DNA of 38,548 bases, from the NCBI GenBank assembly GCA_001563875.1, contig LKMN01000006.1:1-38548 (forward strand), in the 5' to 3' direction. The stretch comes from Nanohaloarchaea archaeon B1-Br10_U2g1. Lineage in GTDB: Archaea; Nanohalarchaeota; Nanosalinia; Nanosalinales; Nanosalinaceae. Position 1 is the first letter of the stretch; every line of letters starts with the position of its first letter. Positions 4,179 through 23,047 of this stretch are shown piece by piece. The notes beneath the pieces were generated by a model, which did no database searches, was not told the DNA's origin, and was given only the letters and a program-made list of their open reading frames with translations. The position numbers and the translations under genes were made by a program.

Positions 4179-4223
4179 AAGGGTTTAGTTAAAGAGTTTT
4201 TACCTGAAAAATACTTTAACAGT

Positions 4224-4928: not shown

Positions 4929-5157
4929 GACACAGGAACAACTGGAGCAAGAGACCAAGAAGTGGCTGGACAGACTTGAAGAAAGAATAGAGAGAAGAGA
5001 CAGCTCTGTTGAACAGATGGAAAACGTTCTGGCTTATCGGGATGATACATACCATTTTTTAGACGAAAAAGACTTTATCCGGGCCTGGGAAGCCGTAATA
5101 TATGCTTGGGGTATATTAGAAACCTTGGAGAGACTGGGAAAGTTTGAGACCGAATAG
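4921..5157 (+). CDS. DUF357 family protein
   Basis: AYRDDTYHF...AWEAVIYAWGILETLERLG pattern, overlaps dph5 as is common in archaea. Confidence 0.85.
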   Translation: MNKTQEQLEQETKKWLDRLEERIERRDSSVEQMENVLAYRDDTYHFLDEKDFIRAWEAVIYAWGILETLERLGKFETE

Positions 5158-5188: not shown

Positions 5189-5470
5189 ATGGGCTGGACA
5201 GATGATCCATGGAAGTATCCTGCCTTCACAGTTGCAGGTATAGCAGCTTTCGTTACAGCAGATATTACTGGTCCAATTATATCAACCAATGTAGGACTTG
5301 AAGACTGGATTGGAGAGTATATAGCTGCAGGTTTGGCAGGAATCCTTTTCGGCTTCGTGATTGATGACATGGTCCCGGCATACATAGCACAGAAGAAAGG
5401 AGGCTCCTCCGACTTTGGAGGAGGCGGAGATGACTTTGGAGGAGGCGGAGATGAGTTCGACTTCGAGTAG
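5189..5470 (+). CDS. Small two-TM membrane protein with Gly/Asp/Phe-rich tail
   Basis: 93-aa ORF, two hydrophobic segments, C-terminus GGSSDFGGGGDDFGGGGDEFDFE. Confidence 0.8.
   Translation: MGWTDDPWKYPAFTVAGIAAFVTADITGPIISTNVGLEDWIGEYIAAGLAGILFGFVIDDMVPAYIAQKKGGSSDFGGGGDDFGGGGDEFDFE
5411..5452 (+). repeat. Perfect 21-bp tandem repeat x2 (GACTTTGGAGGAGGCGGAGAT)
   Basis: Read directly at 5411-5431 and 5432-5452; encodes DFGGGGD twice. Confidence 0.95.
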
Positions 5471-5900
5471 GATAGCTCTACTAATGATTTTTACTCTGTT
5501 AGTATCTGGATTAGCGGTCTCCCATAACCATCATACTAGCTCTGTATATGATCAAACAAGTTTCGAACTACCTCAGTACGATACACATGAGGAGGTTCTT
5601 ATAGAGTTTGTTGCTCCTTTTTTGTTTGTATCTATCCTTCTTACTCTGTCTTACGGCAAAGTTCTGCATGCTATCTTTAAAGATAAAGATGAAACTCCTT
5701 ACGCCAGTCCTTACTGGGTTGAAGAGGAGGAAAAGCCGAATGTTAAACGTTATGCTGTTCTACTAGGCTTTTTGACCACGGCGGTAATAGTTCCTACGGA
5801 GTTCTGGGGATGGATTCAGCTAGCTATAAGTTCCATAGGGGTAATAGTTACGGCAGCCTTTGCGCTATTAGTGGTCTACATTATATATTTGATGAGGTAG
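5451..5900 (+). CDS. Membrane protein with signal peptide and about 3 TM segments (member of local paralogous family)
   Basis: ATG 5451 behind GGAGG, signal-like RIALLMIFTLLVSGLAVS, then FVAPFLFVSILL...GKVLH and KRYAVLL hairpin. Confidence 0.8.
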   Translation: MSSTSSRIALLMIFTLLVSGLAVSHNHHTSSVYDQTSFELPQYDTHEEVLIEFVAPFLFVSILLTLSYGKVLHAIFKDKDETPYASPYWVEEEEKPNVKRYAVLLGFLTTAVIVPTEFWGWIQLAISSIGVIVTAAFALLVVYIIYLMR

Positions 5901-5913
5901 CTGTGATAAATTC

Positions 5914-5920
5914 TTATAAA
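5914..5920 (+). promoter_or_regulatory. TATA box of probable leaderless transcript for 5944..7689
   Basis: TTATAAA about 24 nt before ATG 5944, no SD. Confidence 0.5.
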
Positions 5921-5943
5921 ATAAAAAGCATTAATACTGTCCT

Positions 5944-7689
5944 ATGGAATCCGAACTAAGACGTAAGTTTATCTTTTTGAGTTTAACAGTTATTTTCGTA
6001 TCCGGTTTCGTGGCAGCACAGACTCCGGGAGGAGGTGTAGGAGGAGCACCGAGCGTAACAGGTTTCTTAGATGATATAGCTATGGGTGTCAACGATGCCA
6101 TAAGCTGGGATACAGGCAACACCTGGGAAGCAATGCTGTTAAACGTTATATTGCCGGCATTAGGTATTTATGCTGCAGCAAGGTTTGTTATAGGTAAAGG
6201 ATTCCACTATGCTGAAGCAAACTTCCAAGAAAGAACAAGTCTAGGATCAAGCGAACTTGGAGATACTGCCGAATGGTCTGCAAGAATACTTTCTGCCATA
6301 ACAGCTATCTGGGCGGTAGTTGCCTGGGGAGCTTTCATTGCAGTATACTGGTACATAGCGGGACTGCTGTTCCTAATCTTTCTGTTGTGGATACTGATAA
6401 CCGGAGGAATAGGTGTTATGTCTCCGTTCCCCGAACTATCTCTGGGGATTGGACGTTCCGGAGGAAGTAACGGAGACAATATGGCTCCGGAAGTCGAGAA
6501 AGAAATCAGAGAGATAGCGGATGAAAATCAAAGACTCAGAGACGAACTTAACCAAGTTAGAGAGCAGGAAAAAACCGATGAAGAACGTATAAACAGCGGA
6601 GATGAAGGACCGGAAGAAGCCGAGTCTCATATACGTACAGAGCTAAAAGAACTCTCACAGATAGAAAAACAGATATCAGAAGTTGAGAAAGAAGTAGAGA
6701 CTATTGAGGCGCAGATAAAAAGCCAAGAACAAGAGACGGAGCAAGAAGAACAGCACGAGCAACAGCTTCTACAAAAACTCGAAGCTCAACAAAAGAAGTT
6801 CAAAGAGACACTCCAACAGATAGAAGCTTATGAAGAGAAGACTATTGAAAACCAGAACGGCATAGACCAAATGCTGAACAGTTTGAAGCAGTCCAATCAA
6901 GTCAACAAAGACGCTATCCAAGAAGATTTAGCTTACAATCTTGACAATCTGGTCCAGATTGACAATATGCTTGAAAGCTTGAGTGAAATGGAGCAACAAG
7001 AATTTCAAGAGCTGAAAACGGCTTTAGAAGAGGAAAAAGAGGTTCTGTCTAATTTAGAGGCTCAAAAACAGGAAATTTTGGCTTTAGAAGACCAAGTCAA
7101 ACAGTTATTTAAGGAGATAGATATTTTGGAAAGCTGTTTCGAGGCAGAAGAAGATATAATAAGCCAGGCTGAAAGGCTTGCTCAGCAAGTGAAGGACAGA
7201 GAAGACTACCAGAAACTAGAGGAAGATGAGAAGATAATAGAAGACTTAGAGAGCAAATTCAACAGTATTTTAAATGAAGAAAACAAGATTAGAGAAAGAA
7301 TAGAAGAGCTTAAGGAGATAGAGGAGTACGAGAGAAATCAACATCAGCAGATAATTAATGAGCTTCAAGAGCTGGAAAAAAGCTTCGAAAAAACCCGTCA
7401 AATGCTTATCCAAATTGACGAGCTTATTACAGAGTTCCAAGAGGAAGTAAACAGAGAGATTAATGGAGCTAACTTCGAAACTCAGGCAGAATCTGTTTAC
7501 CACAACAAAGCTAACCGGAGAGGCGAGAACGATTTCCAGTTGATACAGCAAAAATTCCAAGACTCTGTAATGCTTTCCAACCAAATAAAGGCGGAGTTGG
7601 AGGGTGATGGAGGACAGGGAATGATTTCTCTAATACAAGATATGGAGACGTATCTTGGTAATTATCTTAAGGAGATAGGATCAAAATAG
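5944..7689 (+). CDS. Membrane-anchored long coiled-coil protein (signal peptide + about 3 TM + about 390-aa Q/E-rich coiled coil)
   Basis: 581-aa ORF, RRKFIFLSLTVIFVSGFVAA-Q signal, VILPALGIY...GKGFH TM, heptad-rich C-terminal two thirds. Confidence 0.9.
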   Translation: MESELRRKFIFLSLTVIFVSGFVAAQTPGGGVGGAPSVTGFLDDIAMGVNDAISWDTGNTWEAMLLNVILPALGIYAAARFVIGKGFHYAEANFQERTSLGSSELGDTAEWSARILSAITAIWAVVAWGAFIAVYWYIAGLLFLIFLLWILITGGIGVMSPFPELSLGIGRSGGSNGDNMAPEVEKEIREIADENQRLRDELNQVREQEKTDEERINSGDEGPEEAESHIRTELKELSQIEKQISEVEKEVETIEAQIKSQEQETEQEEQHEQQLLQKLEAQQKKFKETLQQIEAYEEKTIENQNGIDQMLNSLKQSNQVNKDAIQEDLAYNLDNLVQIDNMLESLSEMEQQEFQELKTALEEEKEVLSNLEAQKQEILALEDQVKQLFKEIDILESCFEAEEDIISQAERLAQQVKDREDYQKLEEDEKIIEDLESKFNSILNEENKIRERIEELKEIEEYERNQHQQIINELQELEKSFEKTRQMLIQIDELITEFQEEVNREINGANFETQAESVYHNKANRRGENDFQLIQQKFQDSVMLSNQIKAELEGDGGQGMISLIQDMETYLGNYLKEIGSK

Positions 7690-7702
7690 AAAAGGAGAAG
7701 AA

Positions 7703-8176
7703 TTAACTAAGGAAGCTTCTTACTTGTCCCCATACTGAGTCGGATCTGCTGAAAGTCTCTTCTAAGGAAGAGGATGTTTTACTGTTCAAAGATGCTCTCC
7801 TTGATTCTGCTGTTCCTTTTGGTGTGTTATCGTCGATTATATCGATGCCAAGTTTTTTGGCTGTTTCTTTGACTCCTCCTATCTTGTAGCCGTTACATTT
7901 GACTGCGGTGGTTGCTCTGGAGGCTGCATCATAGGCTTCAGACACGGTCTCTTCGTAGATGCTTGGTTCTTCTGAAGTTTCTATCTTGTCTACTCCCAGT
8001 CTTTCTGTCACTTCGTCTAGAGTTGTTTCATAGGACTTTCTGTCGGTAACTGCGGTGCCTGTTTCATCGTATACTTCTGATGCGTCGAAGTCCTCTACGG
8101 TTTCGTACTCTCTTTGAGCTTCGGGTTTTATGGTTCCGGCGTCTTCTCTTCCAGCGTGGTTGTATTCGATTATCAT
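7703..8176 (-). CDS. Hypothetical protein
   Basis: 157-aa acidic ORF filling the gap, TTTATAAA box at about 8205-8212. Confidence 0.75.
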   Translation of the reverse strand: MIIEYNHAGREDAGTIKPEAQREYETVEDFDASEVYDETGTAVTDRKSYETTLDEVTERLGVDKIETSEEPSIYEETVSEAYDAASRATTAVKCNGYKIGGVKETAKKLGIDIIDDNTPKGTAESRRASLNSKTSSSLEETFSRSDSVWGQVRSFLS

Positions 8177-8327
8177 TGTTATGTGTAAGTAGTAACACTC
8201 TATATTTATAAATCTTACCTGTGTCTCTGGCTTGAAACAACCGAAAATATACCTTCTACGCAGTTATAACTCCCAATTATTTAAACCAAAAACATGTTAT
8301 TAGGTAGTATAGAGGTATGCCAAAAAG

Positions 8328-8465
8328 ATGATTGAAAGCTTAATCCAAGCTATTATAGACAATCCTGACGTTGCAGGTCTAGCACTGTTAATAGGTTTCT
8401 TTGCAGGTTCTATGTACCAAAAACGTAAGATGAGAAAAAGAGGAATGGGAGGAATGGGCTTCTGA
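8328..8465 (+). CDS. 45-aa single-TM microprotein with basic, Gly/Met-rich tail
   Basis: Not in the ORF track. MIESLIQAIIDNPDVAGLALLIGFFAGSMYQKRKMRKRGMGGMGF; GAGGT upstream; stop abuts the SD of the next gene. Confidence 0.75.
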   Translation: MIESLIQAIIDNPDVAGLALLIGFFAGSMYQKRKMRKRGMGGMGF

Positions 8466-8477
8466 AGGTGTTAAAAA

Positions 8478-8729
8478 ATGAAGAGAGCTAAATTCCACGA
8501 ATACTTATACGAAGTTGAAAACTGGGTCGACGAGTTCGCGATAGCCTTTCTATCGTTCGGAGCTATAGCGGTCATAATCAACGCTATATTCTTTGCTCCA
8601 GGAGATGTCAACTTCCTATCGCTAGGAGAGCTAATCTATCCTTGGATCGTAATGCTTGCATTAATGATTATAGGAAGAGAGCTGTGGCTCCTCAACAGGA
8701 ACTTGAGGGCTTACGCAGAAGGTGAGTAA
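8478..8729 (+). CDS. Small two-TM membrane protein
   Basis: 83-aa ORF, AAGGTG SD, two hydrophobic helices. Confidence 0.8.
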   Translation: MKRAKFHEYLYEVENWVDEFAIAFLSFGAIAVIINAIFFAPGDVNFLSLGELIYPWIVMLALMIIGRELWLLNRNLRAYAEGE

Positions 8730-8734
8730 GTAAA

Positions 8735-9343
8735 GTGGAAGCCTCAGGGTTCAACCAACTGCTACAGAACATGGCGCAGCAGGACTTCTTCACAGGGATT
8801 TTCCCTTTCCTACTATCCTATATAATATTCTTTTTAGCACTACAGAAGACACCTATATTTAGTGAACAGGAGAACAAGAGATACTCTGCTCTAGTAGCGG
8901 TTATATTCGCGTTCTTTGTGTCATATGCTGTAGTAATGAACCCTGTATACCAAGAGTTCTTCCACAGCTACTTGTCTAGTATAGTAATAGGTATGGTAGG
9001 TCTACTAGGTTTCCTAGTGTTCCTAACGTTTATACCTGGCTTTGACCTAGATAACGCAGGAGCCCGAGGACTTGTAGCTCTAGTTGTATTAGGGAGCTTT
9101 GCAGCTTTCATATTTTCTGGAGGCATGTCTGCCTTCATCCCTGTAGATGTAGGTCTGCCAGGACTGGAATATGGACTGGCAGAGGTCCTAGATTATATAT
9201 TTGAGTCGGGACTGATCTATCTAATAATTATAGGAGCAGCTTTGGCCTGGGTAACCTCTGACGGAGGAGACGGAGACTGGGGAAAGAAAGCTAAGGATGC
9301 AGGAGGATACATGATAAGGCCTGTGGGTCACGGCGGTGGTTAA
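8735..9343 (+). CDS. Multi-pass (about 5 TM) membrane protein, paralogue of 9346..9858
   Basis: GTG start after GGTGA; IFPFLLSYIIFFLALQKTPIF...NKRYSALVAVIFAFFV. Confidence 0.85.
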   Translation: MEASGFNQLLQNMAQQDFFTGIFPFLLSYIIFFLALQKTPIFSEQENKRYSALVAVIFAFFVSYAVVMNPVYQEFFHSYLSSIVIGMVGLLGFLVFLTFIPGFDLDNAGARGLVALVVLGSFAAFIFSGGMSAFIPVDVGLPGLEYGLAEVLDYIFESGLIYLIIIGAALAWVTSDGGDGDWGKKAKDAGGYMIRPVGHGGG

Positions 9344-9345
9344 CA

Positions 9346-9858
9346 GTGTTTGAGAATATTGTATTATCTATGCAGGATATGAGTATTTTCCATCTATTCC
9401 TGCCTTGGTTACTTGTTCTAACGGTTACTTATGGAGTACTTCAGAAACAGGAAATATTTGAGGAAGAAGCTGTAACAGCTGCTACATCTCTATCTGTAGC
9501 ATTTCTATCGATAGGAGGCTTCTACTTCTTTGTTCCTCCAGAGATGTTCAGCCATTTCGCCGCAGTGATAGGATTCGCAATTTTCGGTTTCATAGGTCTA
9601 TTCTTACTGCTGGCAGTGGTTGGAGTAGATATAACAGAGTTTGAAGACGTTGAAAGAAGGTTTCCTGCGATAGCAGCAGCAAGTATAGCTGTTCTCGGAG
9701 CTTTAGGAGTTTTAACTTATCAGTATAATCTATTGGGTCTTCTACCGGAGTTAAGCGAGTTGACAACGTTATCGATAGACTTCGATCAACATGTAATGCC
9801 GATTTTAACTCTTCTGTTCCTACTAGCTATAGTAATATTTGTTGCTAGAGGAGAATAG
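9346..9858 (+). CDS. Multi-pass (about 5 TM) membrane protein, paralogue of 8735..9343
   Basis: GTG start after GGTGG; FLPWLLVLTVTYGVLQKQEIF, same helix layout as the upstream gene. Confidence 0.85.
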   Translation: MFENIVLSMQDMSIFHLFLPWLLVLTVTYGVLQKQEIFEEEAVTAATSLSVAFLSIGGFYFFVPPEMFSHFAAVIGFAIFGFIGLFLLLAVVGVDITEFEDVERRFPAIAAASIAVLGALGVLTYQYNLLGLLPELSELTTLSIDFDQHVMPILTLLFLLAIVIFVARGE

Positions 9859-9866
9859 AAACTATT

Positions 9867-10676
9867 TTACCACTCCTCTAGATCTACTTTATCTATATCT
9901 TCTTGGCTAACTTCGGAACTTGTCTCTATACCTCGTTCTTGTTTGATCTCCTGTACAAGGTCTGTTAGTTCTCTAACATTGTCGACAAGTGATGGAAGTA
10001 CTTGCTGGAAAGCCTTTTCAAGTCCTCCTATACGAGACTGGTAAGAGTCTATATTGTCTTCAATCTCGTCCATTTTCTGTATGAACTGTGTCTGATCTTC
10101 GTCATCTCTGACCTCGAGATCATGTACCCTCTGATCCAGCTCTTCAACCTTCTCTTTGACTTCATCTATCTCTCTGTAGACGTTTTCGAACTCGGCTTCT
10201 ACCATCTCAAAGTTCTCCGCTACAATAGTCTCTACAAGCTCTTCTACACCCGTATTTTGTACGTTTTGACCTTGGGGTGCGGCCTGTTGATCTCTCTGCA
10301 TATTCATCTGTGGTTCTTGAGATATATCTTGTCCTGGGTTCATTTCTTCTTGTTCTTGGTTGTTGAAGTCTTCATCCATAGGGCTTACTGCCTCTTCTCC
10401 GCCGCTGTATGGTTCCATAGGTTTAGGTCCTTCTTCGAAGCTATCTCCTGCTGCGGATGAGGTAACCGCTCTATTGATAGCTTGCTGTATCTCTGAACGG
10501 GAGTACTGTCCGTCAAGCTCGTCTTGTATCTCTCCTTCGGAGTAGCCCTGAGAAAACATTCGTTCCACAGTCCTTTCAAGTCCGCTACCCATAGATATAT
10601 CTGCTGTATTACTGTCTTGTGTAGGTTCTTTAGAGGAGTCCTCGTCTTTCAGTCTTCCGAACAGCTGAAATTTCAT
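9867..10676 (-). CDS. Cytoplasmic protein: small helical N-domain, Q-rich linker, C-terminal coiled coil
   Basis: 269-aa ORF with ATGA overlap to 10673..11140; VEELVETIVAENF...LEKAFQQVLPSLVDNVREL. Confidence 0.85.
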   Translation of the reverse strand: MKFQLFGRLKDEDSSKEPTQDSNTADISMGSGLERTVERMFSQGYSEGEIQDELDGQYSRSEIQQAINRAVTSSAAGDSFEEGPKPMEPYSGGEEAVSPMDEDFNNQEQEEMNPGQDISQEPQMNMQRDQQAAPQGQNVQNTGVEELVETIVAENFEMVEAEFENVYREIDEVKEKVEELDQRVHDLEVRDDEDQTQFIQKMDEIEDNIDSYQSRIGGLEKAFQQVLPSLVDNVRELTDLVQEIKQERGIETSSEVSQEDIDKVDLEEW

Positions 10677-11140
10677 AATTTGTTACCTTTCCGTTCTTTT
10701 TCCTTAGTACTGGCTTGGTTTTCCAGCCTTTTTATCTTTCTGTCTATAAGCCTTTTGACTTCACGTTTTGAGACCGTTTTTTCTTCTTCTACAATCTTTT
10801 TTACCTGTTTTTCGGTTACGAAAGAAGATTTTATAGGGTTCATAAGGTCTATGTAGTTCTCCATTTCGTCGAGCTCTTGATTGGTCACAAACTTCTTTTT
10901 CTCCCGGTTAAGCTCTTTTATATCGACCTCCATGTTCGCTATACGGTCTCTAAGCTCGGAAATCTCGTCTTCTAGGTCTTGTATACTTCTGTTAGTGTCT
11001 TTGTTCTTTTTGAGAACTGTATCGTCTAAAGTATTGACTCGGGCGTTGAGGTTACGTATATTCTCTTCAAGATCTCTGACTCTTCTGTTGAAATCGTTGA
11101 CCCTGTTCACAATCCGGTTCAAAAGGTCTTGTTGCGCCAC
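10673..11140 (-). CDS. Coiled-coil protein, loosely reminiscent of archaellum accessory ArlC/FlaC
   Basis: 155-aa heptad-rich ORF ending its coil in ENYIDLMNPI; divergent from the ATPase. ArlC resemblance is tentative. Confidence 0.8.
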   Translation of the reverse strand: MAQQDLLNRIVNRVNDFNRRVRDLEENIRNLNARVNTLDDTVLKKNKDTNRSIQDLEDEISELRDRIANMEVDIKELNREKKKFVTNQELDEMENYIDLMNPIKSSFVTEKQVKKIVEEEKTVSKREVKRLIDRKIKRLENQASTKEKERKGNKL

Positions 11141-11181
11141 ATCTTTTATTCTAGAAAGCCTTGAATAATAATTAACGGGTT

Positions 11182-13443: not shown

Positions 13444-13452
13444 GCGTTAAAA

Positions 13453-15606: not shown

Positions 15607-15737
15607 AAGGAGAAAACATGATGATAATAGCTACCGTGTTTGCTGCAGCAACTATAGTAGCAGCTTTGATAGTACTAACCGTAATAGATGGGACGGTACA
15701 AAACATACTGGATGATGTGCTAACAGGACTTGGATAG
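15603..15737 (+). CDS. 44-aa minimal pilin-like protein (class III signal MKG/E)
   Basis: Not in the ORF track. ATGA overlap with the platform gene; MKGENMMIIATVFAAATIVAALIVLTVIDGTVQNILDDVLTGLG. Confidence 0.8.
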   Translation: MKGENMMIIATVFAAATIVAALIVLTVIDGTVQNILDDVLTGLG

Positions 15738-15740
15738 AAA

Positions 15741-15935
15741 ATGAAACGTAGAGGAGAAATGGGGATGCCGGTAAGAATTGTGGTGATGTTGGTGGCAGCT
15801 CTAGCAGTAGTTCTCATATTTTTAGCAGTGTTCATACCTGCAGTAGGTGGAGCAGAGGAGGCAACAGGCTGTGATGGAGCTCTAAGAGCGATATCGTCAG
15901 CAATAAGTAGTGCAATGGGAGAGCAGATATGCTAG
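15741..15935 (+). CDS. Small pilin-like protein
   Basis: MKRRG/EMGMPVRIVVMLVAALAVVLIFL, two Cys in the short C-domain. Confidence 0.85.
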   Translation: MKRRGEMGMPVRIVVMLVAALAVVLIFLAVFIPAVGGAEEATGCDGALRAISSAISSAMGEQIC

Positions 15936-17965
15936 GAGGAACAAATTCTCGGAAAGGTTTGGCACAAACGGCGGTAGTAAAAATAGTGGGAATACTCCTA
16001 ATAGGTGCTATCGTGATCAGCGTAATAGGGTCTATAGGATCTGCTATAGCTGATACAGGCGATGCATTGATGGATTTCACAGGAACAAATGAGCATGTGG
16101 ATGTGGAGGAGAAGCACACGTTCATCTCAGCATCCAGATATGTCTATGATAGAGCGTGGGACTGTGAAGAGGTAGAACAGAACATATATCCTGGCTTGGA
16201 AGATACAGACTTTGGTGAAGAGCCTCGTTGTGCAGGTGTTTCAGGTACTGCGGCCGCATACTTTAGAAACATGGTTCCTGGGGAAGACACAGGAGGAGAT
16301 ATGGAGGGAAGAAACTCCCGTATAACCTTCGAGATATCAGAGGATGTCGAGGACAACATCACGATTAGTTCGGATCAGATATACGGTGACGAAGATAGTT
16401 TGCAGAAAGATGAAAGCTCTTCCACAACACTAGATGACTCTGAAGTCGCCTTCCGCGGTGTTTCAGACGACCGAAGTTTCTACCAAAGGACCGATCCTGA
16501 AAGAGATTGTGGAGGCACCGGCTATGGTAACTGGCACGATCCAGGAAATCCTAGATACTTTGTTGCCTTCGATATAATCGGTGAAACAAACAGGGTTAAC
16601 GAAATTGGAGAAGCAGAAAACCTTGACTCCGATATGCCTGTCTACTGTGAAGAAGCATTTGTAGGCGTTTCCGACTACATATATCGTTCCAGCATACAAT
16701 CTAAGTTGGATGGTGAGGACGGAAGTTTTGAATTAGTTCTATGTCCGGGAGATGAAGGATATATACAGGCCAATAAAGACAGTCCTTGGAATGAGGAAGA
16801 AGCTGCAGAAGACCACAGTATCTTCCCATTCATAGAAATCACCACCTTAGGGGAAGACTGTGTTGGACACGGTTTTGGTGACGTCGATGTTCCTGACAAG
16901 CTTCCTGACGATTTAAAGACTTCAGGAAGACTGCTCCATGTAACAGGAGACTCTTCAGAAGATCATCCTTACGTTAGAGGACCTGGTTTAAGTGGAGGAG
17001 CTACGGATTATGCTTTCGACCTGTTCGAACTCAGTGAGGAAAATACAGAGGTTAGTAGTACCATAAGCTCCAAATCTCGTAACATAGATTTTGGACATAA
17101 TCCTCAGAGAGCGGAGGAATGTGTTCTAGGCTTATGGAACCACCATGGAGTAAACCCTGCGCCAGGCTGGGTTAGTTACGAGCAAGGAACAGCTGTGGAG
17201 AGAGACGGAACTTTCCCGGATCTGGAAAGTGAGGACGTGAAAGGCCAGTCTCTTGAAGACAGAAACTATGGTCCTGATGCAGAAGATCTATATAACCTGT
17301 ATGCTCAAGAGGGATTCGTCGGAGGTAGCTGGGGTAGCGATATCTCAGATAAGATCCTGAATGATTTCACTGGAGAACAGAGATTTGAGACATACGGAGA
17401 CCTTCTATGCGCGCCTGACAAGAGAGATGAGGCTCAGGATTTTGAGAACGACCATGCAACATGGTATATGTGTGGAGGAGATCATGGAGTAAACGAGATT
17501 GAAATTAATGAGAAAAAATGGGTCTGTGATGAGGATTCGGGGGCTTGGCTGGAAGAGAGACCTGAAGATTTTGTAGAAATTAACGTTGTTGAGACCGAGC
17601 CGGAAGAGATAGATGAACTGAACATTGGTGACGAGGCAGTCTTTGAGTTGGAGATCTCTGGTAGCGGTTTTGATATGTCGGACGTAGGATTAAACTACAT
17701 TAGACTTGATGATGAGGGTGATGAGGTAAGAGGCGGTTCTGCGGATGATGCTAACTTTGAGACGTCTTCAGATTCAGGAGTAGACTATGAAGCAACGGTT
17801 GCTGAGACCTTAGAAGGCGATAAAGAAGAAGGAGTTCTTGAATGGCCTACATATAATGTTGACGAGGTGGAGGCTGAAGACTTCGTAGGATTTTATCTGA
17901 ACGTTCAAGAGGAAGAAATGGGCAGAGTTGGTGAAAAAAAGGTTGAGATAGACCTGACAGAGTGA
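15929..17965 (+). CDS. Large pilin-like adhesin candidate (678 aa, acidic, Cys-rich)
   Basis: SRKG/LAQTAVVKIVGILLIGAIVISVIG class III-type N-terminus, large extracellular beta-rich body. Confidence 0.85.
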   Translation: MLGGTNSRKGLAQTAVVKIVGILLIGAIVISVIGSIGSAIADTGDALMDFTGTNEHVDVEEKHTFISASRYVYDRAWDCEEVEQNIYPGLEDTDFGEEPRCAGVSGTAAAYFRNMVPGEDTGGDMEGRNSRITFEISEDVEDNITISSDQIYGDEDSLQKDESSSTTLDDSEVAFRGVSDDRSFYQRTDPERDCGGTGYGNWHDPGNPRYFVAFDIIGETNRVNEIGEAENLDSDMPVYCEEAFVGVSDYIYRSSIQSKLDGEDGSFELVLCPGDEGYIQANKDSPWNEEEAAEDHSIFPFIEITTLGEDCVGHGFGDVDVPDKLPDDLKTSGRLLHVTGDSSEDHPYVRGPGLSGGATDYAFDLFELSEENTEVSSTISSKSRNIDFGHNPQRAEECVLGLWNHHGVNPAPGWVSYEQGTAVERDGTFPDLESEDVKGQSLEDRNYGPDAEDLYNLYAQEGFVGGSWGSDISDKILNDFTGEQRFETYGDLLCAPDKRDEAQDFENDHATWYMCGGDHGVNEIEINEKKWVCDEDSGAWLEERPEDFVEINVVETEPEEIDELNIGDEAVFELEISGSGFDMSDVGLNYIRLDDEGDEVRGGSADDANFETSSDSGVDYEATVAETLEGDKEEGVLEWPTYNVDEVEAEDFVGFYLNVQEEEMGRVGEKKVEIDLTE

Positions 17966-18020
17966 TCTGTGAAACTTAAGGAAAAGAAGTTATAAGAGAA
18001 AAAATACAGTAAGTTCTTGT

Positions 18021-18179
18021 ATGTTAGAAAGGAAGGGCCAGACTATTTCGATAAGTACACTAGCCAAGCTTGTTCTGGCTTTAGTTGTCCTGGCCGTAGT
18101 TGTCTTTATCGCTCAAAGCCAGATTGGGCCTATGGTTGATGATGCTGTATCTTCTATTCTGGCACACCAACCGCAGTAG
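18021..18179 (+). CDS. 52-aa pilin-like protein
   Basis: Not in the ORF track. MLERKG/QTISISTLAKLVLALVVLAVVVFIAQSQIGPMVDDAVSSILAHQPQ; TTATAA at about 17990-17995. Confidence 0.85.
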   Translation: MLERKGQTISISTLAKLVLALVVLAVVVFIAQSQIGPMVDDAVSSILAHQPQ

Positions 18180-18212
18180 GTTATTTCAATCAGATAGAGA
18201 CAATGTTTATCT

Positions 18213-18365
18213 ATGAATCTGTCTATAAACACGCTCATAGTGATACTTCTAGGAGTGATAGTGATCTCTGTGGTAGGATTTTTAGTTACAGACCAAGTAA
18301 TAGATTTCCGTTACTTTGCGTTAGACGAGATAGATGCAGTTAACCTAGTGCCTGGAGGTAGTTAG
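18213..18365 (+). CDS. 50-aa pilin-like protein lacking a basic leader
   Basis: Not in the ORF track. MNLSINTLIVILLGVIVISVVGFLVTDQVIDFRYFALDEIDAVNLVPGGS; in-frame stop at 18195 prevents extension. Confidence 0.75.
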   Translation: MNLSINTLIVILLGVIVISVVGFLVTDQVIDFRYFALDEIDAVNLVPGGS

Positions 18366-18368
18366 CAT

Positions 18369-18572
18369 ATGAAGCCTATTCATGTAGTGGTCATGATTGT
18401 TCTGGCTTTAATTGTAGTATCTGCTTTATCCGCAGTTATGATAGGTGTTGAGTCTCCTCTTACATCAATTTTATCTAACTCTTCTGAGACCCAGACAGGT
18501 GTATCTCAGTGTCTAGACCAAAATCCTGACTACTCGTACCAAGACTGTCTCAGAGAGGTTGAAAACTCATGA
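18369..18572 (+). CDS. Small pilin-like protein lacking K/R-G leader
   Basis: GGAGGT SD, N-terminal hydrophobic helix, Cys pair near the C-terminus. Confidence 0.8.
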   Translation: MKPIHVVVMIVLALIVVSALSAVMIGVESPLTSILSNSSETQTGVSQCLDQNPDYSYQDCLREVENS

Positions 18573-19021
18573 AAAAAGGTATAGCCGTCACTTCCAGCGT
18601 ATTCATACTTGTTACAGGAATAACCGCTATATTCGGGTTTGGGTTCGCCGTAGGTGTTATAGATAACTTTCTAGGTATGGAGTCTGATCTCCAGCAAAGC
18701 GAACAGCTTCATAACCTTCATGATAGTTTAGAAAATGCCTGCAGTAACGCTGAGGAGTTCGGAACCTTTTCAGATACTACTGAGGAGTACGAGTTTCCAT
18801 ATCTTGTCTCTCTAGGCGAAGAGAGCAATAGGTTTAGAGCGGAATTTGAAGAAGATGGTGAAACAGAGATTTGGGGCCCTGAACCGGTTGAAGGAGAGCT
18901 TGTGGAGTGCGACCTAGATATACAAGAGTTAACTGAAGAAGGAGCCTACAGATTTGAAATAGAGTCAAGTAACGGTGAAAATCCTACAGTTCAGGTTGAG
19001 CCGGTTGATGGAGATGCGTAA
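18569..19021 (+). CDS. Minor pilin-like protein
   Basis: MKKG/IAVTSSVFILVTGITAIFGFGF, ATGA overlap, two Cys. Confidence 0.85.
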   Translation: MKKGIAVTSSVFILVTGITAIFGFGFAVGVIDNFLGMESDLQQSEQLHNLHDSLENACSNAEEFGTFSDTTEEYEFPYLVSLGEESNRFRAEFEEDGETEIWGPEPVEGELVECDLDIQELTEEGAYRFEIESSNGENPTVQVEPVDGDA

Positions 19022-19400
19022 GGGAGTAGTAGACGCAGGCGTAATAATACTGGTAGGCTTCGTTATATCGGCTATACTTCTTGCTGTACCCAACCAGTTG
19101 ATAACCTCTTCAGGAGAGTTCATAACTGAAGACGTGGCCGAACACCATCTAGAGCAGATAGGAAACAGCGTAATGGTTGTAGAGGATGAGGAAGAACAGT
19201 ATATTGAGGTCGATCTACCAGAATATGAAATAATTGTTGTGGAGAATAGTGTGGGGTTGAGGAGAGGACAGATAGAGGTTTCAAAAGAAATAGATTACAA
19301 TATACAGGGCCCTGATAGTTATGAGAGAATAGACGACGTTCTATGCGTTAAGCATAAGGGAAGTTACACGGATATAAAGGTTGAGAGGTGTTCAGACTGA
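19014..19400 (+). CDS. Minor pilin-like protein
   Basis: ATG 19014 gives MRKG/VVDAGVIILVGFVISAILL (preferred over the track start 18975); C-terminal Cys pair. Confidence 0.85.
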   Translation: MRKGVVDAGVIILVGFVISAILLAVPNQLITSSGEFITEDVAEHHLEQIGNSVMVVEDEEEQYIEVDLPEYEIIVVENSVGLRRGQIEVSKEIDYNIQGPDSYERIDDVLCVKHKGSYTDIKVERCSD

Positions 19401-19876
19401 CAGAGTTTTATGAGAAGATCGAGTACATAGTTGTAGCATTTACTTTAGCGATCGCACTTTATCTGATTATAGCAGGATCTGTCACAGTTTTTCTAGAGTC
19501 TAGCGAGACCGCGACAGAAACCATTTCGGAGAGGTCGCACAACCATCTAGTTCTTGAAGATCTTCTCAATGCTGAGAAAGATACTCCAAGAGCGGTGTTT
19601 ACATCTGATTTTATACTTGATGAGGATAATATTGACTTTAGAGAGGTCAACGGAGAAGAGCACTGTTATATCGAACAAGTATCCGGTCTTGATGGAGAAC
19701 GGTCTGGCTTCGGCTTTATTGAGCAGGGAGTACCTTCTGGAGAGATATCCGGATCCGAAATCTTCGATAGATGTGCTCGTACTGAGCTTTCAGGTACTGA
19801 TCCTTCATCAAGAGTTCTTCTAAAAGATGGTGAAACAAGTTATCTTCCGGGGGTGGTAGTATATGAGATATCGTAA
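19388..19876 (+). CDS. Single-TM pilin-like/accessory protein lacking K/R-G leader
   Basis: 162 aa, N-terminal hydrophobic helix, overlaps both neighbours, two Cys. Confidence 0.75.
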   Translation: MFRLTEFYEKIEYIVVAFTLAIALYLIIAGSVTVFLESSETATETISERSHNHLVLEDLLNAEKDTPRAVFTSDFILDEDNIDFREVNGEEHCYIEQVSGLDGERSGFGFIEQGVPSGEISGSEIFDRCARTELSGTDPSSRVLLKDGETSYLPGVVVYEIS

Positions 19877-20387
19877 AGGTAAAACTGATATAATAGGATA
19901 CCTGTTCCTTTGGGGTATCACAATTACGTTTACAGTGGTGATAACGCTTTCTCTGCTAGCTGCTGACGGTATTGGCATGGCCGATCTGGGTGCTGAAGTC
20001 GAGTTAGAGTCTGAAAGCCAGAACCACCACTCTATGATGGGCACTTTAATCTACGGCGAACTAGCCCGTACGGAAGGTTTAGAGGATTACGGCGATAAGA
20101 CGTTCGAAGAAGTATTATCTCTGTATCTGTCTTCTGATGAAGACCTTTCAGTGAACGGTCAGAGAATCGATAAGGGAGAGGTCAGAGAAGATCTTGAAAC
20201 ATATTTTGACAACAGAAGAAGCTCCACATTCGCATCTCAGGTCATGGGCTACCGCCTCGATATTCTAGCTGAGAACGATCCGGAGTCTTTCGGTGATGTA
20301 GATTCTGAAGAGACACAGATCGCCACTCATCAACTGAAACTTGAAAACGGTACAGCAACATTAATACTGGTGCAGGGTGGAAGATAA
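19863..20387 (+). CDS. Minor pilin-like protein
   Basis: MRYRKG/KTDIIGYLFLWGITITFTVVITLSLL. Confidence 0.8.
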   Translation: MRYRKGKTDIIGYLFLWGITITFTVVITLSLLAADGIGMADLGAEVELESESQNHHSMMGTLIYGELARTEGLEDYGDKTFEEVLSLYLSSDEDLSVNGQRIDKGEVREDLETYFDNRRSSTFASQVMGYRLDILAENDPESFGDVDSEETQIATHQLKLENGTATLILVQGGR

Positions 20388-21415
20388 TCGGAGGTAAAAG
20401 AGGGCTAGCAACAGTAACTATAGGAATAATACTGCTTTTCACAAGTATAGCAACGCCTGCAATAATGATGGCGTACTCCCAAGAACTTGGAGGAACCTCA
20501 GAGTATATTGCGGATGATGTAAACAGGATAGCGGATACAGAAACAGCTAAATCAAATCATATAGACTCGACAAAACCTTTGGAGCTTAAATATGTTAAAA
20601 ATAACAAGTCGGTAAAACTTTCAGAAGAGGGCGGAAACGCTGAATGGGACAACAGAGGACTACCTGACCTGATAACTGAGAATTATGCGGGAGAAACCGT
20701 AGAGAATCTAAAAAACAGCTCTGAAGAACTCCTAGAAGACGAAGGAGTGTCCACAGATGTAAGGACCTGCAGATCAGATTCTAGGAACATGAGCATAGAC
20801 CTCAGCAATACGCCTCATCTTTCCGGAGAGATGGTTACAGAAAACGTTACGACAAACTGCCGGTTCAACTCTGGAGACGTAGAACTTGTTGAAACAGATA
20901 TTGTAACAGAGTTTGAAACGCACAACCGTTATCCGGAGTTGGCTTACTCCTCAAGAGAGTTATTTGAGGATTTTGCTTCAAATCTAGCGAATAAGGAGTT
21001 CGAAGATATAGGTGAAGGCTCTAACTGTGGGTCGAGGACTGCTGCAGAGAATGAAGCCGAAGATGATGCCGAGGATAAAGGCGATGAACGAGTTAGAGAG
21101 GCTTGGGACAGCGCAGTCGACTCTTGGAACAGCGCTAACAGTGTTGTGGTTAAGGAAGAGGAGATTCTTCAAAAGGTTAGCGATCCTGATTCAACCGCAA
21201 GCAGAGAGAGATGGTGTAACTGTGACTGTGACGAGGACGAGTCTAGAGGCAGTTCCTGCTGCGATCCTTATTATGAAGACGATTCTGCCGATTACAATCC
21301 TCAGAGAACGGACACTCTACTAGAGATGAGGGATGACGATGAGAAGATCTTTTACGACGGAAGGGCTAAAGACCTGAGTTTTCTGGTCGATGAGTACAGT
21401 CATTACTTCGACTGA
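20384..21415 (+). CDS. Large minor pilin-like protein with Cys cluster; probable non-canonical ATA start
   Basis: The frame of track ORF 20465 extends upstream as (I)IGGKRG/LATVTIGIILLFTSIATPAIMM. There is no in-frame ATG/GTG/TTG back to the stop at 20342. Confidence 0.75.
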   Translation: MIGGKRGLATVTIGIILLFTSIATPAIMMAYSQELGGTSEYIADDVNRIADTETAKSNHIDSTKPLELKYVKNNKSVKLSEEGGNAEWDNRGLPDLITENYAGETVENLKNSSEELLEDEGVSTDVRTCRSDSRNMSIDLSNTPHLSGEMVTENVTTNCRFNSGDVELVETDIVTEFETHNRYPELAYSSRELFEDFASNLANKEFEDIGEGSNCGSRTAAENEAEDDAEDKGDERVREAWDSAVDSWNSANSVVVKEEEILQKVSDPDSTASRERWCNCDCDEDESRGSSCCDPYYEDDSADYNPQRTDTLLEMRDDDEKIFYDGRAKDLSFLVDEYSHYFD

Positions 21416-21508
21416 TATCTACGCCTAACTTGGTTATAGAGCCTGAGAGCGTATCAAAGGTAATGTTAAAAGTCTTCAGTTCTTTTCTTAGAACAGGTGA
21501 ACAACACA

Positions 21509-21790
21509 GTGGCAGAACAAGAAGACGATAACACAGTATACGTAGGTTCAAAACCTGCAATGAGCTATGTATTAGCTGTAGTAACGCAGTTTAGTGAAGG
21601 ACAGGAGACAGTACACATTAAAGCTAGAGGAAAAGCAATTAGCCGTGCAGTTGACGTAGCTGAAATGGTTCAAAGAAAGTTTGTAGAAGATTCTGAAGTC
21701 GAAGATATAACGATCGACACGGACCAGATAGAGACTGATGAAGGAGAAGAGTTAGACGTCTCAAGCATCCAAATCGATATGGCTAAGTAG
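21509..21790 (+). CDS. albA: DNA/RNA-binding chromatin protein Alba
   Basis: VYVGSKPAMSYVLAV, IKARGKAISRAVDVAE, VSSIQI; GTG 21509 behind AGGTGA SD. Confidence 0.95.
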   Translation: MAEQEDDNTVYVGSKPAMSYVLAVVTQFSEGQETVHIKARGKAISRAVDVAEMVQRKFVEDSEVEDITIDTDQIETDEGEELDVSSIQIDMAK

Positions 21791-21800
21791 AACCTTAACG

Positions 21801-21820
21801 GTTCTTCTTCCACTATTTTT
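21801..21820 (+). terminator. Pyrimidine/T-tract terminator candidate after alba
   Basis: GTTCTTCTTCCACTATTTTT immediately downstream of the stop. Confidence 0.35.
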
Positions 21821-21860
21821 CTACACCATATTTTTATACAGAGGTAAACAAGAGAATCTT

Positions 21861-22169
21861 GTGAAAAGAAAAGGGGTATCACAAGTACTTTCATTGATAG
21901 TTGCTGCAGCAGTACTGATGATGGCTGCACTTACACTGATAATACTGGTAACCGGAGGCCTAGGAGACTTCGGAGCAGACCTATTTGGAGGAACATGCTC
22001 AGGAGCAATAGAGTCATCATGTCAGGCTCAAGGCGGAGGAACCGTTTCGATACCGTCCTCTTGTTTGACCGGAGGAGAACTAACAGAAGAGGCCAATCAG
22101 TTTGATATGACCAGCAATTACAATATAGATCTTGATGATGGAGAAGTAGCTTGCGCGCCACAAGAGTAA
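21861..22169 (+). CDS. Pilin (major-pilin candidate)
   Basis: MKRKG/VSQVLSLIVAAAVLMMAALTLII, four Cys, TTTATA at 21833-21838. Confidence 0.9.
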   Translation: MKRKGVSQVLSLIVAAAVLMMAALTLIILVTGGLGDFGADLFGGTCSGAIESSCQAQGGGTVSIPSSCLTGGELTEEANQFDMTSNYNIDLDDGEVACAPQE

Positions 22170-22187
22170 GGAGATCAGGTTTCAAAA

Positions 22188-22481
22188 ATGGACAAAACTG
22201 TAGAGATACTTGTTGTAGTTGTTGTAGCGTTGATAGCGGCAACAATTGTAATATTTCTCTTAACAGATCAGACTGATGGGTTCGCAGAGTTTGTAGGAGA
22301 TTCAACGGAAGACTCTGAATGCAGGATAGCTGAAGCACAGTTCGGACAATCTCTCACATGTGACGGAACTGATTTTGAGACAGGAGAATATCAGGAGATA
22401 TACGAAGAACACGATCACTGTGACTGGGCTCAGGACTTCCAAGGAGCTGTTGAAGCAAGAGACAGCTACTGCGGCGAATAA
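22188..22481 (+). CDS. Pilin-like protein lacking K/R-G leader
   Basis: MDKTVEILVVVVVALIAATIVIFLL, four Cys, CxWA motif shared with 22534..22779. Confidence 0.8.
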   Translation: MDKTVEILVVVVVALIAATIVIFLLTDQTDGFAEFVGDSTEDSECRIAEAQFGQSLTCDGTDFETGEYQEIYEEHDHCDWAQDFQGAVEARDSYCGE

Positions 22482-22533
22482 GATCTCAGCTCTAGAGAAT
22501 TTATATGTAGGCAGTCCAATTAACTAAATTACA

Positions 22534-22779
22534 ATGCCAACAAAAGGGATGTCAGCAACACTTGCTGTCGTGGTGGCCGCTGCAGTAATACTTGTAACCG
22601 CGGCAGGCGTGATAATGATGTTCCAGACAAGTGCAGGAGAGCTTGGAGAATGGATCGATACAGAAACAGGTGAGGCCGACTGTTATGGCCTTCAGACGCA
22701 GTACCAAGGCGGAAACGATGAGGCCTTAGCAGAGGCTGAGTCCGAAGGCTGCCAATGGGCCGACGAAGTAGACGACTAG
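22534..22779 (+). CDS. Pilin
   Basis: MPTKG/MSATLAVVVAAAVILVTAAGVIMM, Cys pair, TTTATA at 22500-22505. Confidence 0.88.
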   Translation: MPTKGMSATLAVVVAAAVILVTAAGVIMMFQTSAGELGEWIDTETGEADCYGLQTQYQGGNDEALAEAESEGCQWADEVDD

Positions 22780-22822
22780 CTAAAATCATTTTATATGGGT
22801 ATTTAACCATTAATAGAATACA

Positions 22823-23047
22823 ATGGTCTATTCAAGACTGATGAAACTGATTCTACAGAGATGCGTTCTGGTTCTTGAGACAAGGAAAGGTGTCTCTCAG
22901 ACCCTGGCTATACTAGTGGCTGCGGCTGTACTGCTTATGACGGCAACTACTATGATAGTGGTTATACAGGGAGGTTTCGGAGATCTAGGTGACTGGCTGA
23001 ACCCTGTATTTGATGATCCTGAAGCCCAAACCGGTTTAGACGATTAA
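22823..23047 (+). CDS. Pilin with long leader and very short C-domain
   Basis: ...ETRKG/VSQTLAILVAAAVLLMTATTMIVV; TTTATA at 22790-22795. Confidence 0.85.
   Translation: MVYSRLMKLILQRCVLVLETRKGVSQTLAILVAAAVLLMTATTMIVVIQGGFGDLGDWLNPVFDDPEAQTGLDD

Follow-up and report, generated by a model that had tools for sequence, protein, structure and literature searches.

A conserved type IV filament locus of Nanohaloarchaeota and Aenigmatarchaeota with candidate accessory coiled-coil and membrane proteins

Cultivated DPANN archaea need cell contact with their host. Electron cryo-tomography of DPANN contacts has revealed nanotubes, attachment organelles and pilus-like links, to which no gene is assigned in the text available to us (PMC11329633, PMC11420986, PMC11803251); in the first two of these articles, as far as available, the contact structures are described and neither type IV pilus genes nor ATPase genes are mentioned by name. 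Two conserved type IV pilus loci with CpaF, TadC and coiled-coil proteins were described by Hamm et al. 2024 (PMC11291902) for cluster-2 DPANN, i.e. Nanohaloarchaeota, Woesearchaeota, Pacearchaeota, Nanoarchaeota, Aenigmarchaeota and Undinarchaeota. According to the accessible part of that article, the coiled-coil proteins initially drew attention by 'putative nucleopore domains', a likeness to sigma-1 (6GAO) is reported for them, and some coiled-coil proteins of such loci were picked up by proteomics in Ca. Nanohaloarchaeum antarcticus. Moreover, subclade 4F of Makarova, Koonin & Albers 2016 comprises ATPases with extra N-terminal domains and the intracellular coiled-coil protein arCOG07564, in an article whose available text contains no Nanohaloarchaeota, DPANN or Aenigmarchaeota terms (PMC4858521). 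In the parts available, Makarova et al. 2019 state that components of DPANN type IV pilus loci can be unrecognisable (PMC6393860), and a 2022 paper on Ca. Nanohaloarchaeota mentions Tad-like clusters (PMC9563170). Here, positions 5189-23047 of contig LKMN01000006.1 of Nanohaloarchaea archaeon B1-Br10_U2g1 were analysed, within a window (the whole stretch of DNA under analysis) of 38,548 nt. For this locus an earlier note, written from the sequence alone, had proposed an undescribed envelope machine with a type IV filament core.

With a probability of roughly 60%, the locus is best explained as a lineage-specific machine of the type IV filament (TFF) superfamily, which nearly all Nanohaloarchaeota and Aenigmatarchaeota have in a single copy as part of their core genome and which carries accessory scaffold and membrane parts and serves host contact. 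The window is contig C10 of a genome of 0.71 Mb that is 96.75% complete. The gene order was taken from lists of open reading frames (ORFs) and Pfam scans of the window proteins, and all hydrophobic segments are predicted ones. The 5′ flank of the locus holds the housekeeping genes for a Trm5-like protein, a DphB-like protein (4128-4928) and DUF357. These are followed by seven ORFs with hydrophobic segments (5189-9858), two minus-strand coiled-coil genes (9867-11140), the ATPase gene and the platform gene, and then by ten ORFs with an N-terminal helix (15603-20387), a 316-aa acidic ORF, an Alba gene and four small prepilin-like genes (21861-23047). Further 3′ lie iPGM on the minus strand and FEN1, aEF-1beta, NMD3, aIF-1A, RIO and Topo VI. 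The features on which the argument turns are the following.

8735-9343, plus strand: membrane paralogue 1, 202 aa, five hydrophobic segments
9346-9858, plus strand: membrane paralogue 2, 170 aa, five hydrophobic segments
9867-10676, minus strand: coiled-coil protein A, 269 aa, no transmembrane (TM) segment, predicted cytosolic
10673-11140, minus strand: coiled-coil protein B, 155 aa, net basic, no TM segment, predicted cytosolic
11141-11181, no strand: divergent intergenic region of 41 nt, AT-rich, flanked by the start of coiled-coil B (11140, minus strand) and the ATG of the ATPase (11182)
11182-13443, plus strand: ATPase, 753 aa, T2SSE, N-terminal domain (about 200 aa) specific to the clade, extended C-terminus
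13453-15606, plus strand: platform protein, 717 aa, polytopic, T2SSF
15603-20387, plus strand: ten ORFs with an N-terminal helix, 44-678 aa, candidate minor pilins
21861-23047, plus strand: four small prepilin-like genes, 74-102 aa, candidate major pilins

Judged from its sequence, the TFF core identity of the locus is secure, as an ATPase, a polytopic T2SSF platform, substrates with class-III-signal-peptide-like N-termini and, elsewhere in the genome, a Peptidase_A24 are all present. The ATPase matched Pfam T2SSE (PF00437) with 56.1 bits (cut-off 24.9), and GspE, CpaF and FlaI were on top of its PDB relatives. In the best PDB match, A. fulgidus GspE (2OAP), query residues 298-654 aligned with chain residues 104-443, and in the FlaI alignment residues 326-700 fell on 127-483; the offsets in both alignments point to an N-terminal extension of about 200 aa, as the earlier note had read from the ORF. 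Alignment A2 contains the conserved blocks GAGK[TS] (P-loop), EDTLE, GE[VI]RS and GT[VI]HG, which we take to be the Walker A, Asp box, Walker B and His box of a PilB/GspE/ArlI-family secretion ATPase, and conservation runs over the full length of the protein. An AlphaFold2 (AF2) model of residues 1-300, computed with 83 sequences, reached a pLDDT (predicted local distance difference test) of 83, with most of residues 11-200 above 90, and combines a helical bundle with a small alpha/beta unit; no PDB fold match for this N-domain model was returned by Foldseek (best E 0.9).

By a word-indexed protein search, at least 3485 relatives of the ATPase were found at E<=0.001 among 8000 candidates scored. 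The best 120 relatives are 75-100% identical (68% for one intein-bearing form), and the genera named among them are Nanohalobium, Nanohalovita, Nanohalococcus, Nanosalina and Haloredivivus. In a scan of species-representative genomes, which yielded 47 loci, Nanohaloarchaeota orthologues were 73-89% identical, save two divergent loci at 61%, and Aenigmatarchaeota-type orthologues, of which five bear that label, were 51-54% identical over residues ~8-753, N-extension included. A metagenome scan with the ATPase alignment added 80 further loci (49-87% identity), and a search starting from one unlabelled ATPase clade returned only names of Aenigmatarchaeota/Aenigmarchaeota. Within the same loci the ATPase (mostly 73-89%) is better conserved than DphB (56-69%) or iPGM (64-71%). 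An ATPase phylogeny, which had been suggested as a check, was calculated with FastTree and placed the locus ATPases in a tight clade on a long branch, apart from the four ATPase paralogues of the same genome.

Many ATPase orthologues are about 1250-2000 aa long and contain intein/LAGLIDADG domains (PF14528, PF14890), e.g. P0017, P0022, G011, G015, G021, G025, G027, G033, G043 and G053 and, among Aenigmatarchaeota, G079, G086, G096, G098 and G112, so that the insertion occurs in both phyla. The match to the window ATPase, which is intein-free, is broken at about residues 491-508, near the EDTLE block.

The platform contains one T2SSF (PF00482) domain at residues 462-588 (28.7 bits, cut-off 25.2) and ten predicted hydrophobic segments. 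A second T2SSF repeat was not detected in the Pfam scan, so that the fused platform of the earlier note stands as a single 717-aa protein whose fusion is deduced from its length. Downstream, 14 pilin-like ORFs with an N-terminal hydrophobic helix were counted at 15603-20387 and 21861-23047, one fewer than the 15 of the earlier note. In nine of the 14, as read by eye from the N-termini, a [KR]G motif directly precedes the hydrophobic stretch. The upstream ten, for which no Pfam or NCBIfam family was found, include one giant, an acidic protein of 678 aa (15929-17965). Among the four small prepilin-like genes, which have blastp matches in 10-18 related loci, RKG-VSQ followed by a hydrophobic run is found at 21861 and 22823 and TKG-MSA at 22534; 22188 is without such a motif. 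The prepilin peptidase of the genome is a single PibD-like Peptidase_A24 on contig C23, outside the locus, which scored 25.5 bits, or 28.6 bits with neighbouring in-frame stretches, against a cut-off of 26.5.

In the same genome, five T2SSE and seven T2SSF matches were found, which are distributed over three further ATPase loci, each with its platform split into two genes, the present locus with a single long platform gene, and one orphan ATPase. The other T2SSE ATPases are encoded at C23:11193-12692, C2:12495-14417, C13:1808-3517 and C16:111271-113064, a heavy investment in type IV filaments for 0.71 Mb. The split platforms of the three other loci are TadB/TadC-like, and one of these loci adjoins the sole prepilin peptidase.

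That the locus might be a degenerate or highly diverged archaellum is suggested by FlaI being the best NCBIfam model for the ATPase, by the JGI label 'flagellar protein FlaI' on several of its orthologues and by coiled-coil A of the window reaching the FlaC_arch cut-off (28.9 bits against 27.8). However, the ATPase stays under every curated NCBIfam cut-off, with 138.1 bits against the 550 of the FlaI equivalog (NF058587) and 130 against the 373 of TadA. Archaellin (PF01917) had no match anywhere in the 96.75%-complete genome and was found in four archaeal control genomes, and ArlH/KaiC, ArlF/G, Che, relaxase and VirD4 were absent from the Pfam scans of all locus proteins, in keeping with what had been noticed by inspection. 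FlaC_arch, in turn, is matched by just 11 of 58 coiled-coil A members, among many generic coiled-coil families. The archaellum explanation is thereby largely refuted, and we regard it as very improbable.

The two coiled-coil genes and the ATPase gene diverge from the 41-nt gap as the earlier note had stated, and this gap is presumed to be a shared promoter region. As neither protein has a hydrophobic segment, the pair would most simply be cytosolic. In alignment A4 (58 sequences), coiled-coil A begins with a small helical domain in which the motif G-[YF]-S-x-x-E-I is repeated, followed by a variable low-complexity P/Q-rich linker and a conserved C-terminal coiled coil. Pfam matches of this family at E<=1e-3 are DUF7310 in 19 of the 58 members, FlaC_arch as given above and Nup54 in one, with generic coiled-coil families alongside. 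Coiled-coil B (alignment A3) has conserved N- and C-terminal motifs with the invariant residues R20, E25 and P102, and its family matches many coiled-coil Pfam families, including Nup49_C (1 member) and TPR_MLP1_2 (3). Since both have family-specific invariant residues, the two proteins are more than generic coils. In PDB profile searches with the coil families, GCN4 constructs, trimeric autotransporter adhesins, keratin, HA2 and reovirus sigma-1 (6GAO) were matched at similar levels.

The sigma-1 matches of the two families (E 4.3e-5 and 3.3e-6) were considered as a likeness to a viral attachment protein and rejected as nonspecific, the other four kinds of protein just named having comparable scores. 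Coiled-coil B is net basic (36 K+R vs 32 D+E) amid strongly acidic neighbour proteins, and a Lys/Arg-rich C-terminal tail is present in its Nanohaloarchaeota copies and absent from the Aenigmatarchaeota copies.

The membrane proteins encoded at 8735 and 9346 are only weakly similar by BLASTP (E 9e-4), and their proposed paralogy became clear when the family alignments were compared by hhalign (98.7% probability, E 2.7e-16). Each paralogue family matched the tandem arrays of Aenigmatarchaeota with 98.3-98.5% probability, compared with 0.2-64% for unrelated TM families of the same loci used as controls. None of 89 members of this 5-TM family had a Pfam match (E<=0.001), and no NCBIfam match was found. 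The AF2 model of paralogue 1 is an all-helical bundle (pLDDT 78) without a PDB fold match in Foldseek (best E 2.0), and PDB profile searches with the family gave no significant match, the best being a designed binder and NuoJ at E ~1e-3. By exhaustive searching with a hidden Markov model (HMM), 3082 cluster representatives were obtained at E<=1e-3, of which 1512 reach E<=1e-10; the best 150 are, with few exceptions, 147-226 aa long and matched over their full length. As leads only, the ESM Atlas gave archaeal clusters, most commonly Nanobdellota and Woesearchaeota (scores 0.89-0.90), and a word-indexed search with alignment A1 gave 31 proteins, of which one is labelled Nanopusillaceae and one Aenigmatarchaeota.

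The coiled-coil and 5-TM genes are most economically read, from their gene neighbourhood, as probable accessory parts of the same machine. By tblastn, 33 window proteins were compared with the 47 species-representative loci, in which many misses are due to contig-end cuts. Matches were obtained for coiled-coil B in 43 loci, for coiled-coil A and the platform in 42 each, for paralogue 9346 in 34, for paralogue 8735 and the 83-aa TM protein encoded upstream of it in 32 each, for DUF357 in 24, for DphB and for Alba (downstream of the ATPase) in 23 each, and for iPGM in 14. Subsequently, HMMs were applied to 122 loci with an ATPase ORF, with those loci as denominators that have enough flank. Of the 92 loci with an upstream flank of 1.5 kb or more, 83 have a homologue of coiled-coil B in the 1.5 kb before the ATPase and 84 have one of coiled-coil A in the 2 kb before it, both invariably on the strand opposite to the ATPase. 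Where the upstream flank measured 4.5 kb or more, 56 of 66 loci had one or more membrane paralogues within 4.5 kb of the ATPase, with no copy in 10 loci, one in 6, two in 33, three in 15 and four in 2. The copies near the ATPase occur on either strand, which implies that the adjacency of this family has survived rearrangement. Downstream, the platform followed within 1.5 kb in 68 of the 93 loci whose flank measured 2.5 kb or more, and 41 of the 57 loci with 8 kb or more contained a long ORF (450 aa or above) with a hydrophobic N-terminal helix; counted irrespective of size, ORFs with such a helix number 5-11 in most loci.

In Aenigmatarchaeota, the order is DphB, DUF357, a ~300-aa cytosolic protein, a ~190-aa 2-TM protein, three to four tandem 5-6-TM proteins (157-223 aa), two minus-strand coiled-coil genes, ATPase, platform and genes for N-terminal-helix proteins, including giants of 600-990 aa. 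The earlier note had named a lack of synteny with the ATPase in other genomes, or a known unrelated function of the membrane and coiled-coil genes, as grounds for giving up its proposal; the coils and 8735/9346 families are syntenic with the ATPase across two phyla, and the 5-TM family has neither a Pfam match nor a PDB fold match.

The co-distribution of the 5-TM family and the ATPase was determined in 61 sampled genomes of each phylum. Among the Nanohaloarchaeota genomes the family was found in 53 and the ATPase in 54: 53 have both, seven (73-91% complete) have neither, none has the family only, and the remaining one has an ATPase fragment alone, at a contig end. In 47 of the 53 genomes having the family there are exactly two matches, and in 46 of the 53, as read by eye from the tables of matches, the ATPase and the family are adjacent on one contig; in the other seven they are on different contigs, several at contig ends. 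Among the Aenigmatarchaeota genomes the family was found in all 61 (1-5 copies each) and the ATPase in 60. In the sampled genomes of both phyla there was no sign of a second ATPase copy, the matches being single or in two halves (intein or contig-end split). The two thus co-occur as the earlier note had proposed to check, which says little, since both are near-universal core genes in the two phyla and presence or absence is therefore uninformative.

This last point is one of several that weigh against joining all these genes into one machine. In L058, L060 and L061, metagenomic loci of an Aenigmatarchaeota-type subclade, the coiled-coil pair is missing beside the ATPase. In Aenigmatarchaeota many arrays are adjacent to the ATPase and a sizeable share is on other contigs. 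Ten such unlinked array regions were inspected, and the ATPase gene was present in none; in three of them the array is flanked on both sides and a DphB, DUF357, coiled-coil or ATPase match is absent, and in four a DphB- or DUF357-side gene is present. As DphB, DUF357, Alba and iPGM are syntenic too, the neighbourhood is weaker evidence than it looks, and with housekeeping genes such as DphB and DUF357 syntenic in both phyla, ancient collinearity can mimic functional linkage. Additionally, the choice of a major pilin among the locus pilins is a guess. The linkage of the 5-TM family to the ATPase is frequent and not obligatory.

In place of the coiled-coil pair, L058, L060 and L061 have a single 420-430-aa protein about 1.3 kb upstream of the ATPase; it is not coil-like, has no TM segment, and no family was identified for it. 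In both phyla, the genes for DphB, a diphthine synthase-like protein, and DUF357 precede the ATPase at a distance of 3-10 kb (window 4128-5157; L030, L032, L037, L041, L070, L100, L115 and others), an unexpectedly old synteny of a translation-factor modification gene with a pilus-like locus.

These observations give some room to a different explanation, in which the system would consist of the ATPase, the platform, the pilins and perhaps the coil pair, and the 5-TM and other membrane ORFs (5189-9858) would encode core membrane proteins with no relation to it, for instance a transporter or a lipid-handling factor, which the ancient collinearity of small DPANN genomes has kept in place. The synteny of DphB and DUF357, which are unrelated to pili, with the ATPase in both phyla, and of Alba and iPGM within Nanohaloarchaeota, fits this explanation, as do the housekeeping-like distribution of the 5-TM family (61/61 and 53/61 genomes), unlinked arrays that keep DphB-side neighbours and not the ATPase (L131, L134, L135) and the location of the family on other contigs or about 8 kb off in L022 and L027. 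However, the arrays are directly beside the coil pair in most loci, even when inverted (L045, L070, L100, L103 and others), no transporter or enzyme family is detectable in the 5-TM proteins, and several unlinked arrays sit at contig ends (at least five of the ten inspected have the array at or near one). Moreover, a coiled-coil A homologue stays beside the array in two of the ten unlinked regions (L133, L134), a hint that the coils may link the array and the ATPase modules. On balance, the collinearity explanation is taken seriously and considered rather unlikely.

If the accessory genes do belong to a TFF machine, its working can be sketched as follows. The prepilin peptidase would trim the prepilins, and a hexamer of the ATPase would power the platform, at which the small pilins (21861-23047) would be built into a filament; the upstream ten (15603-20387) are possible minor or tip subunits, and the 678-aa protein is a putative distal adhesin. 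Coiled-coil A and B, together with a membrane-anchored coiled coil of 581 aa encoded at 5944-7689, may make up a scaffold in the cytoplasm close to the membrane, which would bind to the clade-specific ATPase N-domain and correspond in function to ArlX/ArlCDE, GspL/M or PilM/N/O. The tandem 5-TM paralogues may encircle the platform within the membrane or lend it stability. Host-cell contact, i.e. adhesion and possibly exchange, would be the most likely biological role.

DPANN archaea depend on their hosts for building blocks, and the machine could accordingly be pictured as a pseudopilus-type transport device for secretion or for the uptake of DNA or host material, with minor pilins as a short piston and the membrane paralogues as conduit. 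An ATPase that is near-universal, single-copy and unusually conserved, above neighbouring enzymes, would suit such a device, as would the inteins in many of its orthologues, the resemblance of the ten heterogeneous pilin-like genes to minor-pilin sets and the presence in the genome of three further ATPase/platform loci that could make ordinary pili. On the other side, no Pfam or NCBIfam match to a channel, secretin, DNA-binding or translocase family was found among the locus proteins, and the 5-TM model resembles no known channel. Nor was a HerA/VirB4-like ATPase found, by which CedB of the Ced/Ted systems would be recognised, the sole locus ATPase being of the T2SSE type, and the membrane proteins of the locus gave no Pfam or NCBIfam family. 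A transport device is therefore viewed as doubtful, and the channel, secretion or uptake function of the earlier note is not supported, although the sequence does not decide between an adhesive pilus and a pseudopilus-type machine. Still more speculative, and in our estimate improbable, is a DPANN host-contact organelle in which a TFF motor, its N-domain clamped by the coil scaffold, and a 5-TM conduit beside the platform would both attach to the host and move lipids, nucleotides or DNA, as an essential uptake device rather than a dispensable adhesin.

The remaining ORFs of the locus are listed below.

5189-5470, plus strand: 2-segment protein, 93 aa, acidic Gly/Asp tail, no Pfam family, tblastn match at the same position in 21/47 loci
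5415-5900, plus strand: 4-segment protein, 161 aa, tblastn matches in 25/47 loci
5944-7689, plus strand: membrane-anchored coiled-coil-like protein, 581 aa, four N-terminal hydrophobic segments, tail of ~330-390 aa
7703-8176, minus strand: acidic protein, 157 aa, no TM segment, poorly conserved (match in 1/47 loci)
8328-8465, plus strand: small ORF, 45 aa, one hydrophobic segment
8478-8729, plus strand: 83-aa TM protein, two hydrophobic segments, conserved in Nanohaloarchaeota
20465-21415, plus strand: acidic, Cys-containing protein, 316 aa, no hydrophobic segment in the ORF as called

Together with the paralogues, hydrophobic segments are thus found in the seven membrane ORFs at 5189, 5415, 5944, 8328, 8478, 8735 and 9346 that had been counted in the earlier note. 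The same holds for its membrane protein with a coiled coil of about 390 aa: in the 581-aa protein, the tail is heptad-like over residues 183-515 as judged by a crude script, has matches to SMC coils at 183-538 and contains no proline beyond residue 223. This protein is poorly conserved in sequence. A counterpart follows the 4-TM gene in 20 Nanohaloarchaeota loci listed, with a length of about 490-560 aa, N-terminal TM segments and a charged tail, or split into a TM gene and a charged gene (L014, L016); in L002 it is a 375-aa ORF without a predicted TM segment. On this basis, the 581-aa protein is a candidate membrane-anchored scaffold. The 83-aa protein was found by tblastn (41-83% identity) always immediately upstream of the paralogue pair.

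It is uncertain whether the 93-aa protein belongs to the machine and whether the 8328 ORF is a real gene; in seven of the listed loci (20 in all), an ORF of 43-47 aa stands before the gene of the 83-aa homologue, and in four of the seven it has a hydrophobic segment. The listed ORF at 5415 overlaps the preceding one, so that its true start is probably later, and its assignment to the 8735 family (hhalign 64% probability, E 6.5e-5) was too weak to claim. Paralogues of the coiled-coil or membrane proteins elsewhere in the same genome were not detected by tblastn of the locus proteins.

The Alba chromatin/RNA-binding gene (21497-21790; PF01918, 78 bits) lies inside the pilin run, between the upstream ten and the four small prepilin genes. 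Just past iPGM, 24552-25538 and 25588-26976 encode two very acidic coiled-coil proteins (328 and 462 aa) with weak and generic Pfam matches. Outside the locus, the ORFs at 156-797, 863-1516, 1717-3120, 28893-30134 and 37927-38538 (203-467 aa) are without a Pfam family at E<=0.001.

Taken as a lineage-specific TFF machine for host contact, the locus provides a concrete gene candidate for the contact structures of DPANN archaea, in the form of an exceptionally conserved TFF machine in two phyla. Three well-defined parts without known function, i.e. the ATPase N-domain, the coiled-coil pair and the 5-TM family, become specific targets in existing co-cultures, and with the latter a large protein family has been defined for which our searches of Pfam, NCBIfam and the PDB gave no match. 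As regards the earlier note overall, its observation was confirmed and its interpretation is partly supported.

Compared with known systems, the coiled-coil proteins beside the ATPase, some of them membrane-anchored, and the marginal FlaC_arch match recall the archaellum, in which ArlX (Crenarchaeota) or ArlC/D/E (Euryarchaeota) form a cytoplasmic scaffold around the motor ATPase. Unlike in the archaellum, archaellin, ArlH and ArlF/G are lacking, the ATPase is far under the FlaI cut-off, and the coils are no more than possible homologues. A further parallel is offered by GspL/M and PilM/N/O of bacterial T2SS and type IV pili, accessory membrane and cytoplasmic proteins by which the ATPase, bound at its N-terminal domain, is kept on the platform. 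The likeness is one of concept only; the searches gave neither a sequence match nor a fold match to these proteins. To our knowledge, archaea have no outer membrane and no secretin.

Like the archaeal type IV pili (Aap, Ups, PilA/PilB-C; PMC4858521, as far as its text was available), the locus has an ATPase, a TadC/ArlJ-like platform and class III pilins, with PibD encoded elsewhere. With subclade 4F, as it is given there, the locus shares an N-extended ATPase and a coiled-coil protein, a resemblance by description only. Unlike in the systems described in the available part of that article, the N-domain is not Cys-rich and has no fold match, and the tandem 5-TM paralogues are without a described counterpart. 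The predicted secretion complex of Makarova 2015 (PMC5898192) was rejected as a match, being unrelated.

Most similar are the loci of Hamm et al., with which, as described in the accessible part of that article, the present locus shares a CpaF/VirB11-type ATPase, a TadC-type platform and adjoining coiled-coil proteins in Nanohaloarchaeota and Aenigmarchaeota, as well as coil families that match sigma-1 6GAO and nucleoporin Pfam families (1-3 members). Unlike in their Locus 1, as far as its markers are given in that text, GroEL, GatE and Mpg are not in the window, and the thermosome gene is on contig C22, away from all TFF loci. In the accessible text, Hamm et al. read the coils as similar to viral attachment fibres. 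The coils analysed here have no signal peptide or TM segment, and their sigma-1 match is no better than those to GCN4, keratin and HA2, which makes a cytosolic role more likely. The available main text of Hamm et al. is without mention of 5-TM paralogues, the ATPase N-domain or a TM-anchored coiled coil, and no published description of the 5-TM family or the N-domain was found by full-text searches or in the article text available to us; the supplements of Hamm et al. may list neighbouring membrane genes. As the nucleoporin and 6GAO matches of the coils fit the description given by Hamm et al., the core of the finding is already in print, so that the word 'undescribed' in the earlier note would hold for the 5-TM family and the N-domain and not for the machine as a whole. 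What appears to be new here is thus the 5-TM family and the N-domain of the ATPase, added to a locus whose core has in part been published.

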